Positions 28,265-32,596 of a stretch of 64,000 bases of DNA are shown here, in pieces (position 1 is the stretch's first letter; every line of letters starts with the position of its first letter). Source of the stretch: Candidatus Hadarchaeota archaeon (lineage in GTDB: Archaea; CAYQAE01; CAYVLA01); assembly GCA_964621445.1 (NCBI GenBank), contig CAZUNO010000003.1, positions 128,001 through 192,000 on the forward strand. Reading direction: 5' to 3'. The notes beneath the pieces were generated by a model, which was given only the letters and a program-made list of their open reading frames with translations, made no database searches and was not told where the DNA came from. Made by a program: the position numbers and the translations under genes.

Positions 28265-28498
28265 TTGACCATGGTTCAGAAACCAATGGATATACTTGAT
28301 TCATCACTGGACCAGGTAGTGCTCATAAAGCTTAGGGGTGGCAGAGAGTTCAGGGGCCTCCTCCGCGGCTATGATGTACACATGAATATAATCCTGGACG
28401 AGGCGCAGGAGCTAGACGGACCGGATGCCCTGAACTTCGAGACCGCCATAATTAGGGGCGATAATGTTGTATTCATATCGCCGACCGATAAGAGGTGA
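28265..28498 (+). CDS. Sm-like archaeal protein (SmAP/Lsm)
   Basis: Sm1 ([20 protein letters not shown]) and Sm2 (IIRGDNV) motifs; directly upstream of L37e. Confidence 0.95.
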
Positions 28499-28503
28499 TC
28501 AGA

Positions 28504-28671
28504 GTGACAAAGGGAACGACATCTTTTGGCAAGAGGAACAAGGTTACTCACGTTATATGTCGCAGGTGCGGCAATCATTCCTATCACGTAAGGAAGAAGA
28601 GGTGCGCTGCCTGCGGTTTTGGGCAGAGTTCAAAGAGAAGGACCTATAACTGGCATAAGTGGTCAACGTAA
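28504..28671 (+). CDS. rpl37e: 50S ribosomal protein L37e (missed by the ORF track)
   Basis: GTG start after GAGGTGA; [40 protein letters not shown]. Confidence 0.97.
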
Positions 28672-28737
28672 GGGATACGGATAACCGTCCTTGAATCCGA
28701 GAACATTTTAAAGCAAATCCAACTAGTGATCTGCGGT

Positions 28738-28861
28738 GGGCCGGTAGATCAGTCGGTAGATCGTCGTCTTGGCATGGCGTTTAACGCCCCAAGCTGGCGG
28801 AGGCCGCGGGACAGGGTCTGGGTTTCCAGGCCTTGCGCGAATTCAAATCCCGCCCGGTCCA
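28738..28861 (+). tRNA. tRNA-Ala(GGC) with two BHB introns (28775-28794 at 37/38; 28811-28841 at 53/54)
   Basis: Removing both introns gives a full cloverleaf GGGCCGG...TTGGCAT...GCGGG TTCAAAT CCCGC CCGGTCC A; BHB helices TTGG/CCAA and CGCG/CGCG with 3-nt bulges. Confidence 0.93.
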
Positions 28862-28996
28862 CTTTCGGGTTAACCCATTTAACCAATTAGGAATATAAAA
28901 TAGGCCTTTTTGGATTTTTTTATGGGGAATATTGCCAATTACGGGGAAATCCGTTTCGATTTACGTGCAAAATGTCTTATTATAGACCCGATGTCA

Positions 28997-29010
28997 CAAA
29001 AACTTTATAA
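28997..29010 (+). promoter_or_regulatory. BRE/TATA promoter (CAAAAACTTTATAA)
   Basis: Strong archaeal consensus about 24 nt upstream of the hairpin element at 29034. Confidence 0.65.
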
Positions 29011-29033
29011 GCAGGCCCGTCCTTTACAGGAAT

Positions 29034-29133
29034 GGGTCGCCTGAGCGGTAACTCAACCCCCTAAACCCCGAAAAGAAAGAACCCCCTATTTCCCCGAATT
29101 GTGTGTTTCTTTTCTCGCTGAGGCGGCCCCTTT
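29034..29133 (+). ncRNA. Candidate structured small RNA with two C-rich single-stranded motifs
   Basis: 29034-29048 pairs with 29115-29129 (one G.G mismatch); 29070-29078 pairs with 29106-29114; own TATA box. Confidence 0.55.
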
Positions 29134-29181
29134 GGGTAAAGACCAATAAGCCTCTAGTATACACCATATTATCGTGGTCGA

Positions 29182-31602
29182 GTGAGGGGTCCGGAAGTCG
29201 GCATATCCAGCCTTGGCGGGGAGTGCATTTCAGTCGCGCTTCTATCCCTGGCCTCGCTTACCCTGGAGATCAGCCTTACCAGGGTTTTATCATTGGTTGC
29301 CTGGTATCATTTCGCGTTTATGGTGGTTAGCATAGCCCTTTTTGGTTATGGGGCTGCTGGAGCTGTTCTTTCCGTGTTCCCTGGGCTCAGGAAGGATGGG
29401 CGGGTCCTCATTGTCTCATCCTGGATATGTTCCATCGCCGTAGTTCTCTGCCTGGTATTCCCGGTGGTATTTCATTTCGACCCCATGCTGGCAGACACCG
29501 AGCCATTCCACCTGGTAATGATAGTTTTACAGTATCTTAGCCTTGGTATTCCCTTCTTTCTCAGCGGAATATGCCTGGCTTCCGTGATATCCAGGCATTC
29601 GGAGAGGTCCAGTATAGTCTACTTCTCAGATCTAACCGGAGCCGGGTTGGGGTGCATAGCCGCTTTGCTGCTGCTTCCACTGGGGGGACCAAAAATCCCC
29701 GTCTTCTTCGCCGCGGTGGCGGCGGCCCTTGCATCCGCCATCTTTTCATATGTCCACGGTGGAAGACGTCTTATTTTCCTGGGATTGGCTACTGGATTGG
29801 CATTGCTATTGGTGGGGGGAGTGGTAGAATACGATCCGGAGATCTCCGAGTACAAGGCCATGAGCGCGGTTTTGCGGCAGCCCGGCGCTGAAAGGGAGTG
29901 GAGTTCATGGAATGAGGTGTCGCGGGTTGACGTGCTGAATAGCAGCATGATAAGGTATGCCCCCGGCATGCCCTTCGAGAAGTACTATCCGATTCCCGAA
30001 CAGCTTGGCCTTACCGTGGATGGGGACAACCTGGAACCGATAACCAGGTTTAGCGGTAATCTTTCCGATCTATCGTTCATGAGGACTTTGCCCTCCTCGG
30101 TTCCTTACCAGATGTCCTCCAGATCCAGAGTCCTGGTAATCCGGTCCGGTGCCGGTTTCGATGTGCTCAAGGCCCTGGTGAATGGGGCCGAAAGAGTTTC
30201 CGGGACCGAGAGGAATCCTGGAATTGTCGAGGTGGTTGGTAAGGAGTTCGAGCGGTTCTCGGGGGATATATACTCCCGTGAGGATGTTGACCTGGCGCGG
30301 AGGGGTGTAAGGTCATATCTAGGCGAGGTTGAGGGCAATTTTGACCTGATGGAGATATCGCTTAAACAGGACCCCGTAACCTCGGCTGTGGGGATGTACA
30401 GCCTCTCCGAGAACTACCTTTTCACCACCGAATCCTTTGGTGAGATGTTTGAGCATCTATCCCCGGAGGGAGTCCTGACCGTTACCAGGTGGCTATCCCC
30501 TCCACCAAGACAGGGGGCCAGGGTGGTGAGCCTAATGGTCGATTGCCTGGAGAGGGAGGGAGTGGATAGAGTTGGAGAGCATATCGCTTGTTTCCGTACA
30601 TATCTAACGATTACTGCGATGATTAAGAAGACGCCTTTCACCGTTGCTGAGATTGATGATCTCAGGAGGATTTGTGAGGAGAGATCGTTTGACCTCGTGT
30701 ATGTGCCAAATATCACCAGATCGGATGTCAATCGTTTCAACCTGTTTGATCGGCCATACTACTTCAACGCGATAAGCAAGATCGTGAACGACACTGAAAG
30801 GGAGAGCTTTCTGTCGGATTATATCTTCGATCTTTCCCCTCCCACGGATGATAGTCCCTTCTTCTTCGATTTTCTAAAGCTGGGTAGACTGGGTGATATC
30901 GCCGGGGCTCTGGGCCCGGCCTGGAATCCCTTCCTGGAGGGAGGCCTCCTGATCCTGGCGGTTTCGGCGCAGTCATTGGTTGCCTCCTTCCTGTTCATAA
31001 TGGGTCCTATTTGGCTATCATCCAAGTTGGGACATGAATTGGAGATGGAGTGGAGGTGGATATCCTACTTCCTCTGTCTGGGCGGGGGCTATATGCTGGT
31101 GGAGGTGTCCTTCTTGCAGAGATTGATACTGTTCCTGGGACAGCCATCACACGCCATGGGGGTGACTCTGTTCTGCATGTTGGTCTTTTCCGGCCTGGGT
31201 AGTCTCTGGAGCGGACGTTTTAGGCCGAGTTCCAGGCTCGTAGGGCTCTGTGTTCTAGGTATCGTGTTTATGGTCCTTGCTCACGTTTTCCTTTTCAGTT
31301 TTCTAATAGGGAATTTCATGGGGCTGGGAATATGGATGAAATCTCTGGTGGCCGTGTCAATACTAGCCCCGGTAGCCTTCCTAATGGGAATTCCCTTTCC
31401 CACGGGATTGAGGGTTCTGGGAAAGAATTCCCCGGATTCAGTTCCCCTGGCCTACGGTTCGAATTCATGTGCCTCGGTTGTGGCCTCGGCTGGTGCCATG
31501 GTTCTGGCCGGGTGGGGTGGGTTTTCCGGTGTTTTGCTGTTGGCTATTGTACTCTATTTGATAGGTTTCCTTTCCCTAAAAGGTGTTGGGAAAAGCGGAT
31601 AA
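29182..31602 (+). CDS. Polytopic membrane protein with central spermidine-synthase-like SAM-binding domain
   Basis: YHFAFMVVSIALFG, YFSDLTGAGLG, VLVIRSGAGFD, SLSENYLFTTE and PTDDSPFFF; TM clusters at both ends. Confidence 0.8.
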   Translation: MRGPEVGISSLGGECISVALLSLASLTLEISLTRVLSLVAWYHFAFMVVSIALFGYGAAGAVLSVFPGLRKDGRVLIVSSWICSIAVVLCLVFPVVFHFDPMLADTEPFHLVMIVLQYLSLGIPFFLSGICLASVISRHSERSSIVYFSDLTGAGLGCIAALLLLPLGGPKIPVFFAAVAAALASAIFSYVHGGRRLIFLGLATGLALLLVGGVVEYDPEISEYKAMSAVLRQPGAEREWSSWNEVSRVDVLNSSMIRYAPGMPFEKYYPIPEQLGLTVDGDNLEPITRFSGNLSDLSFMRTLPSSVPYQMSSRSRVLVIRSGAGFDVLKALVNGAERVSGTERNPGIVEVVGKEFERFSGDIYSREDVDLARRGVRSYLGEVEGNFDLMEISLKQDPVTSAVGMYSLSENYLFTTESFGEMFEHLSPEGVLTVTRWLSPPPRQGARVVSLMVDCLEREGVDRVGEHIACFRTYLTITAMIKKTPFTVAEIDDLRRICEERSFDLVYVPNITRSDVNRFNLFDRPYYFNAISKIVNDTERESFLSDYIFDLSPPTDDSPFFFDFLKLGRLGDIAGALGPAWNPFLEGGLLILAVSAQSLVASFLFIMGPIWLSSKLGHELEMEWRWISYFLCLGGGYMLVEVSFLQRLILFLGQPSHAMGVTLFCMLVFSGLGSLWSGRFRPSSRLVGLCVLGIVFMVLAHVFLFSFLIGNFMGLGIWMKSLVAVSILAPVAFLMGIPFPTGLRVLGKNSPDSVPLAYGSNSCASVVASAGAMVLAGWGGFSGVLLLAIVLYLIGFLSLKGVGKSG

Positions 31603-32496: not shown

Positions 32497-32596
32497 GGGC
32501 CCGTGGTCTAGCTGGTTATGACATCGCCTTGACGTACTCCTTTTCAGGCGTTCAAAAAGGCGAAGTTCTTGGGTTCAAATCCCAACGGGCCCACCA
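32497..32596 (+). tRNA. tRNA-Val(GAC) with canonical 37/38 intron (32535-32557) and encoded CCA
   Basis: GGGCCCG/CGGGCCC acceptor, TCGCC/GGCGA anticodon stem, BHB TTGA/TCAA, TTCAAAT T-loop; TTTAAAT promoter at ~32464. Confidence 0.93.

Follow-up and report, generated by a model that had tools for sequence, protein, structure and literature searches.

This analysis concerns a 64-kb stretch of DNA (the window) from Candidatus Hadarchaeota archaeon, contig CAZUNO010000003.1 of assembly GCA_964621445.1, positions 128,001 to 192,000. Plain coordinates below refer to the window; G000 denotes its own genome and G001-G003 three sister genomes of the same family. On the + strand, at 29034-29129, lies an element that is very likely a real stand-alone RNA gene and that, together with its homologs, is called family 1. 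It is preceded by a PUA-domain gene, an LSM-domain (SmAP) gene (28265-28498), the L37e gene (28495-28671) and a tRNA (28738-28861), and followed by an open reading frame (ORF) of 806 aa (29182-31602, + strand) without any Pfam family at E<=0.001. Its loop is complementary to a separate G-rich RNA family, called family 2, and base pairing between the two is tentatively proposed. Our observations concern the gene, promoter geometry, stem, strand and conservation, and the complementarity between both families. The family-1 element is composed as follows (B recognition element, BRE; cells are stem positions counted over all copies compared).

28997-29011 (+), BRE/TATA promoter CAAAAACTTTATAAG; AAAACTTTATAAG is invariant in four genomes and present in 8/8 copies
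29034-29129 (+), small RNA gene of family 1, 96 nt; 5' end placed by promoter spacing, 3' end by the end of the stem
29034-29048 (+), terminal stem, 5' strand (15 bp); 99.2% of 120 cells paired
29115-29129 (+), terminal stem, 3' strand; 20/120 cells G.U or U.G
29049-29069 (+), one-sided bulge of 21 nt, by reading of the sequence
29055-29069 (+), first C-rich motif AACCCCCTAAACCCC in the bulge; in 8/8 copies, variable
29070-29078 (+), A/U-rich upper stem, 5' strand GAAAAGAAA; 9 bp in G000 only
29106-29114 (+), upper stem, 3' strand TTTCTTTTC; pairs with 29070-29078
29079-29105 (+), loop of 27 nt, likewise by reading
29076-29103 (+), 28-mer AAAGAACCCCCTATTTCCCCGAATTGTG comprising the second C-rich motif and its flanks; identical in 8/8 copies bar one inserted T
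29083-29095 (+), loop core CCCCTATTTCCCC; reverse complement of the family-2 G-rich core

Promoter, fold and conservation of the family-1 element

Homologs of the element were collected from genomes and metagenomes. BLAST search with 28265-29400 as query against 40 relatives detected it in all three other genomes of its own family, which is labelled Hadarchaeota. A 19-mer from the loop, used as search pattern, retrieved eight metagenome contigs, six of which carry the whole element; the other two (L036 and L039) matched in unrelated coding sequence and were dropped. After removal of identical copies, the four genome copies and six contigs yielded eight distinct sequences of 88-97 nt (G000, G001, G002, G003, L032, L033, L035 and L037).

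Within the promoter, CAAAAACTTTATAA occupies 28997-29010, and the RNA start GGGTCGCC at 29034 lies 23 nt past it and 22 nt past TATAAG. As counted by eye, 21-22 nt separate TATAAG from the stem's first G in all eight copies while the sequence of the spacer differs. Since the distance between TATA box and start has a usual value in archaea, transcription would begin at the first base of the terminal stem.

The + strand folds at -32.7 kcal/mol against a shuffle mean of -22.1 (z -3.42), and none of 200 shuffles is as good; for the - strand z is +0.09 and 107 of 200 shuffles are equally good. Of the 15 positions of the terminal stem, the tenth is a G.G mismatch and two are G.U pairs (U4-G and G15-U). 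In the eight copies 119 of 120 stem cells are paired (99.2%), compared with 33-51% in slid controls, and three pairs change in compensatory manner (G-C/A-U at 6/94, C-G/A-U at 13/87, G-C/A-U at 15/85). Pairing and compensation of this extent were matched by three of 500 shuffles. The 20 G.U or U.G cells would turn into A.C mismatches if the minus strand were the transcript, and the + strand is thus the one corresponding to the RNA.

Inside the terminal stem, conservation is uneven. The 28-mer AAAGAACCCCCTATTTCCCCGAATTGTG is identical in all copies except for one T inserted in G003; 19 of its 28 bases served as search pattern for the four metagenome copies, so that the four genomes alone constitute an independent test. 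The first C motif varies in its tracts (C4-5 and C3-5) and spacer (TAAA, TAA or TA). As for the upper stem, its 6-bp core (AAAGAA/UUCUUU) is perfect in five copies and has one mismatch in three, covariation being absent, and RNAalifold, applied to four sequences, retains the terminal stem only. Promoter, terminal stem, second C motif and the four C-tracts are conserved among the eight copies. In UGAG (RNA positions 9-12; 29042-29055 region) the terminal stem contains a segment that can pair alternatively with CUCA (positions 19-22) or with the opposite (3') strand of that stem; by eye, CUCA is retained in seven copies and is UUCA in the eighth, where pairing is kept via G.U. The local UGAG/CUCA hairpin could represent an alternative conformation.

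Family 1 is single-copy in its own genome. Its identity to the three sister genomes reaches 79-82%, compared with 70-72% in the adjoining SmAP-L37e-tRNA stretch. A covariance model of family 1 (R1) scores 101-116 bits in 4/4 family genomes and has no match in the sole other genome of the class (98% complete). In 147 further archaeal genomes it gave only one match (G055, 24.3 bits, per-genome E 0.028), which is expected by chance among 151 genomes.

These data bear on an earlier note, made from the letters of this DNA, that had proposed a discrete non-coding RNA gene on the + strand with its own promoter; fold significance, conservation and the covarying stem all argue for such a gene. The BRE/TATA ahead of the RNA start was confirmed, as was the 15-position pairing of both ends, including its single G.G mismatch and the two G.U pairs that favour the + strand. 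The four G-tracts that the note saw on the minus strand are present, and tracts of at least three G are kept in 8/8 copies. Conservation in relatives, which it had named beforehand as a check, holds for the stem and the second C motif in the eight distinct copies, but the first motif varies in length. The motif which the note read in both bulge and loop is AACCCCCTA-N2-CCCCG in the bulge, as stated, but has a spacer of N3 (TTT) in the loop, AACCCCCTA-N3-CCCCG. The 9-bp stem GAAAAGAAA/TTTCTTTTC exists in G000 but is absent as 9 bp from the other seven copies. Similarly, the noted 10-codon ORF (ATG 29032) is present in G000, but its ATG is missing in six of the seven other copies (by eye), and it was rejected as a gene. 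Coding on either strand, including a minus-strand ORF of 47 aa, was dismissed on account of inter-copy indels of 1, 4, 6 and 8 nt.

None of the known RNA classes compared accommodates the element. Rfam 15 at gathering threshold detected only the tRNA at 32497-32593 in the whole window. At E<=10 within 28650-29250, the matches were the tRNA at 28738-28861 and a spurious one to the long non-coding RNA HOTTIP_2 (11.8 bits); the element remained unmatched by any family, RsaE, riboswitches, signal recognition particle (SRP) RNA, RNase P, 5S and Y RNA included. This outcome of a check set in advance, together with the lack of an ARAGORN match, upholds the statement of the earlier note that the fold is not that of tRNA, C/D sRNA (small RNA), SRP or RNase P. 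More specifically, ARAGORN matches nothing in the window, the Rfam tRNA covers 28738-28861 and not 29034-29129, and a T-arm sequence is absent. Against a C/D box sRNA speak the absence of TGATGA within the 96 nt, the confinement of CUGA to the stem strands and the missing Rfam match. An H/ACA sRNA, which would need a two-sided pocket, was rejected since the internal loop is one-sided, 21 nt of its 5' strand facing 0-3 nt of the 3' strand, and since only one of eight copies (L032) has ACA after the stem. A role as rRNA guide was discarded as well: the best ungapped helices with 16S (10 bp) and 23S (12 bp) are equalled by 74/100 and 23/100 shuffles. Finally, an analogue of Ro-bound Y RNA was rejected because no TROVE domain was found in the genome by a search that was positive in Deinococcus and Bacteroides controls. 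There is no sign of viral or mobile origin either: the loop 19-mer occurs in none of the viral contigs, and an 18-mer of family 2 occurs in five that neither covariance model matches, which was put down to chance. An own BRE/TATA at about -26, a covarying structure and independence from neighbours are what would be expected of a stand-alone archaeal sRNA gene, and it is reasonable to regard 29034-29129 as one with high confidence.

The G-rich family 2 and its complementarity to family 1

The loop core CCCCUAUUUCCCC of family 1 matches the conserved core of family 2 in reverse complement; the G-rich counterpart in family 2 reads GGGGAAAUAGGGG. The 13-mer GGGGAAATAGGGG has 3, 2, 1 and 1 extra occurrences in the four family genomes, seven altogether, compared with a single match of the reversed control; five of the seven lie inside family 2. 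Each genome has the exact 13-mer in at least one copy.

With a covariance model of family 2 (R2), 11 copies scoring 63-105 bits were detected, five of them in G000 and two in each sister genome; the other 147 genomes gave none. Both families are therefore present in 4/4 family genomes and in neither case in the remaining 147 searched. Family 2 has no Rfam match. The copies detected with R2 are listed below.

C24:34565-34653, G000
C2:28179-28282, G000
C14:58337-58434, G000
C6:33788-33888, G000
C22:45600-45702, G000
L064-L071, copies in G001-G003

Family-2 elements are about 95 nt in length (about 89-104 nt) and number 2-5 per genome. They are closed by a terminal stem of 12 bp (GAUCCCAAGGGG/CCCCUUGGGAUC) with compensatory changes and contain the invariant CGCGGUCGGCUUCC and the G-rich core GGGGAAAUAGGGGAUUCUUCUCAGGCGACCUCU (GGGGAAAUAGGGGAUUCUU). 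When read in the G-rich sense, all 11 have a TATA-like box 21-24 nt before the stem start GAUCCCAAGG (by eye), and a U-tract often trails the stem. Among the cells of stem positions 1-11, four are wobbles compatible with the G-rich sense alone, and none is compatible with the opposite sense alone. Transcription in the G-rich sense is suggested mainly by the promoter and by these few wobble pairs, and is not proven.

Relation between the families is local. A family-2 profile (nhmmer) matches all eight family-1 copies, on the reverse strand only and over 27-33 nt, with E of 2e-5 to 3e-4 in a small database; in G000 the match resumes after a 31-nt gap at CUCAGGCGA, which faces the 5' strand of the stem. 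Neither full-length model detects the other family (R2 has no family-1 match at E<=1, R1 no family-2 match), which indicates that the relation is one of complementarity at the most conserved bases of both. When cofolded, so that the own structure of each RNA competes, the G000 RNA and copy C24 gain -13.7 kcal/mol, compared with a mean of -0.2 and a minimum of -7.6 for 300 random 97-mers.

We suggest, tentatively, that family 1 is a stand-alone base-pairing sRNA whose partner is the G-rich family 2, in the manner of RoxS and RosA; this may well be right, though we stop short of calling it probable. Transcription from the BRE/TATA promoter would start at the first G of the 15-bp G+C-rich terminal stem, which would close a largely single-stranded C-rich interior. 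CCCCUAUUUCCCC would be displayed in the large invariant loop (AAGAACCCCCUAUUUCCCC) and pair with the family-2 core GGGGAAAUAGGGGAUUCUU, and in this way one RNA would titrate the other or control it, a relation like that between C-rich RoxS and its G-rich sponge RosA in Bacillus. According to a part of PMC8216469, G-rich regions of sRNAs bind C-rich regions of others both for RoxS and FsrA with their sponge RosA (Bacillus) and for RsaE with RsaI (Staphylococcus). It is an inference from the sequences that the two RNAs are produced and come into contact to pair, and so is any direction of control between them. It is also possible, if a shade more doubtful, that the single-copy C-rich RNA acts as master sponge or antisense controller of the multi-copy G-rich sRNAs, which would be the first archaeal network of sRNAs acting on sRNAs. 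Both families share a common gene design (TATA, 22 nt, stem-closed RNA) and are confined to one Hadarchaeota-labelled family, and family 2 is scattered beside DUF4838, URO-D-like and sugar-enzyme-like genes.

Several observations weigh against the proposed pairing. The 11 within-genome cofold gains are -13.7, -7.6, -5.2, -4.1, -4.0, -3.6, -1.6 and four times 0 kcal/mol, and only two of these pairs exceed the first percentile of controls (-6.3). The G motif is altered by an indel or another change in six of 11 family-2 copies. Compensatory change between the families is absent, because the family-1 loop never varies. In the second shared block (GGUCGCCUGAG and CUCAGGCGACC) complementarity is not kept, the needed G being replaced by A in three of four genomes, and this block thus suggests common ancestry or a parallel structure. 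Pairing with family 2 accounts neither for the invariant GAAUUGUG nor for the first C motif, and no U-tract terminator lies 3' of the family-1 stem. As to the sense of family 2, stem position 12 has five A.C cells that would be wobbles in the other sense, which U-G pairs in a possible inner helix favour as well.

Upstream of all 11 family-2 copies, at about 80 nt, a conserved block AAACGTTGGGATAACA-N8-TTTAAACAAAACCACTTTATTTTCGTAACAA was noticed (e.g. L064:1076-1155 and L072:1421-1500). A 24-mer of it occurs in the own genome only at the five family-2 copies. The block probably holds the promoter together with an operator-like AACGTT palindrome. Scanned neighbours of family 2 encode DUF4838, URO-D and semialdehyde dehydrogenase proteins and proteins without family, to which may be added two ORFs that we take, from their translations, to be a putative oxidoreductase and a TIM-barrel-like protein; no transposase is among the seven neighbours scanned. 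Three of the 11 copies are located downstream of DUF4838 genes and four upstream of a 351-371-aa protein family with M-x-Y/F-K-x-D-W start and no Pfam match, and a same-strand ORF of at least 80 aa is found downstream of about 10 of 11. Isolated near-matches to family-2 boxes in G000 (CGCGGTCGGCTTCT and TTCTCGGGCAACCTCT, at C69:1328-1341 and C6:123250-123265) may be diverged or broken copies. Neighbour genes of family 2 include the following.

L065:2-1363, family-2 neighbour gene
L072:2-1312, family-2 neighbour gene
L066:1643-2704, family-2 neighbour gene
L074:166-1257, family-2 neighbour gene

Surroundings, other partners and alternative explanations

The gene of 806 aa downstream raises the question of a 5' leader or riboswitch. 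It lies on the same strand about 50-100 nt beyond the element in five of eight loci (G000, G001, L032, L033 and L035), is hinted at in G002 by a shadow ORF only, and might encode a membrane protein; lack of a U-tract terminator past the stem would suit a leader too. A riboswitch or leader should, however, keep a constant position upstream of the gene it regulates, and here G003 and L037 differ. In G003, two convergent genes (L031:2239-3632) start 30 nt past the stem, between the RNA and the 806-aa homolog, so that the element is not simply a leader. In L037 an ORF with glyoxalase fold intervenes downstream, and on the upstream side two further genes lie between tRNA and element. In addition, a conserved AATAAG box CCAATAAG, which we read as the TATA box of the 806-aa gene itself, separates the two, the element is better conserved than neighbouring coding sequence, and no Rfam riboswitch matches it. 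A leader is hence hardly probable at all. A further explanation, quite unlikely in our opinion but less so than a leader, is a trans-acting sRNA that would pair with G-rich mRNA segments, whether in ribosome-binding sites or in other places, like RsaE/RoxS or sRNA41 of Methanosarcina mazei. The C-tracts are exposed, and GGGG occurs at -18 to -3 of 159 out of 2207 long ORFs. In tests on start regions, defined by crude start codons of longest ORFs, motifs enriched before starts were GAGGT (3.9x), GGTGA (2.9x), GGGGA (2.3x) and GGGG (1.6x); with the tools used, short seeds are inseparable from chance. Shine-Dalgarno motifs here nevertheless belong to the GAGGT/GGTGA type, and the 16S rRNA terminates 3' in GGAUCACCUCCU (CCUCC type). 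Oligomers complementary to the RNA interior are not enriched in start regions relative to two control windows: counts were 98 (controls 101 and 97) for 8-mers, 23 (36 and 25) for 9-mers and 8 (7 and 7) for 10-mers. Pairing with G-rich targets, as the earlier note had imagined it, thus survives in that a G-rich partner does exist in family 2, but not in its application to ribosome-binding sites. Long antisense targets in the own genome do not exceed chance, the best being 13-14 nt exact or 22 nt with two mismatches (E 0.8-3). The 22-nt match, on C7, sits in the sense strand of a gene, presumably HypA-like, and a 16-mer at C4:34936 that overlaps the stop codon of an unverified 84-aa ORF was left as chance. 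RNAduplex energies on long targets are inflated and were not counted as evidence. Extra matches to GGGKTTWAGGGGK, the complement of the first C motif, have about control frequency in the five genomes searched.

An RNA bound by protein would be another explanation, and we consider it unlikely, albeit the least so of the alternatives. The stem with its two C-rich sites (AACCCCCUA-N2-3-CCCC) would then serve as scaffold or as decoy for a protein that binds single-stranded C-rich RNA; SmAP might bind U-rich tracts, and the likeness to family 2 would be left over from a common origin. A single-stranded block of 28 invariant nt beside flanks that are 70-72% identical suits a fixed macromolecular partner, the C motif is duplicated within the RNA, and neither mRNA nor rRNA has an enriched complement. 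Yet no candidate protein was identified, and a search of the genome gave no TROVE/Ro protein. A second copy of a protein site would not be expected to differ in length and tract size as the first site does. Nor would protein binding account for the exact complementarity between the most conserved 13-mer and the core of another conserved RNA. Closeness to the SmAP gene is shared synteny of close relatives and not evidence. It is very improbable that family 1 is a relic or a DNA-level feature, namely a partial inverted copy of family 2 acting e.g. as motif in either orientation or as G-quadruplex of the template strand. Such an origin agrees with the two blocks shared in the same inverted order in G000 and with the four minus-strand G-tracts of at least three G kept in 8/8 copies. 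On the other hand, the stem covaries and needs the G.U pairs of the + strand, the similarity is local (27-33 nt) with no cross-detection by full-length models, and if the two complementary sequences did not pair, it would be hard to see why each is independently constrained; pairing is the reading we prefer.

A few features of the neighbourhood may be added. The tRNA at 28738-28861 (+) has a 53-nt insertion between anticodon stem and T arm and can be read as tRNA-Ala (anticodon GGC, G3:U70 pair). It was missed by ARAGORN and by the Rfam search of the whole window, while the sensitive local Rfam run scored it at 37.7 bits. The tRNA at 32497-32593 is a second one bearing an intron. Proteins encoded by the downstream gene measure 801-814 aa beside the RNA in most loci and have an N-terminus that looks hydrophobic by eye. 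The insert of G003 encodes a protein of 205 aa with matches to helix-turn-helix and AbiEi antitoxin families, and a partner of 259 aa without Pfam match.

Known counterparts and meaning for the lineage

Two RNA types resemble family 1 in layout. 6C RNA of Actinobacteria has two similar C-rich loops, one on each of two hairpins. Family 1 has two C-rich sites as well, but these are located in a bulge and a large loop under one stem, and no match was obtained at E<=10 with the Rfam library, which presumably includes 6C. Y RNA and YrlA, which go with Ro60 (TROVE), are about 100 nt in length, with ends paired in a long stem and a pyrimidine-rich interior. Here, in contrast, the genome has no TROVE protein, and neither Rfam Y_RNA nor YrlA matches family 1.

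The closest functional parallel is offered by Firmicutes. RoxS, RsaE and FsrA are, as a part of PMC8216469 describes them, stand-alone sRNAs of about 100 nt with several unpaired C-tracts and G-rich partners, in which family 1 is alike. They differ in being bacterial, with a sigma-A promoter, a Rho-independent terminator and mainly Shine-Dalgarno targets. The archaeal family 1 has a TATA promoter and a long terminal stem but lacks a terminator hairpin; it has no sequence or Rfam relationship to these sRNAs and no enrichment of complements at start sites. RosA (B. subtilis) and RsaI (S. aureus) are transcribed separately and neutralise a C-rich sRNA through G-rich regions (PMC8216469, same part). 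Family 2 is geometrically equivalent to them but differs in being multi-copy (2-5 per genome), archaeal, about 95 nt in length and equipped with one G motif per copy, and it is known from sequence alone.

Among archaea, sRNAs of the type of M. mazei sRNA41 mask ribosome-binding sites, as stated in a part of a 2018 review (PMC5867862). M. mazei sRNA41, sRNA154 and sRNA162 are intergenic sRNAs of a different lineage without sequence relationship to family 1, whose proposed partner is itself an sRNA. No archaeal sRNA sponge was found among the literature matches listed, the word 'sponge' is absent from the part of the review (PMC5867862) at hand, and among the matches listed for non-coding RNA of Hadarchaeota nothing was relevant by title.

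Only a small number of archaeal regulatory RNAs have been assigned a partner. In this case, sequence yields two new RNA families whose promoters, covarying stems and conserved complementarity of 13-19 nt make them a directly testable pair. The two covariance models can be used for annotating genomes in which Rfam finds nothing. If the proposed pairing of family 1 with family 2 is true, the logic of C-rich and G-rich sRNAs known from Firmicutes would extend to an uncultured archaeal lineage.

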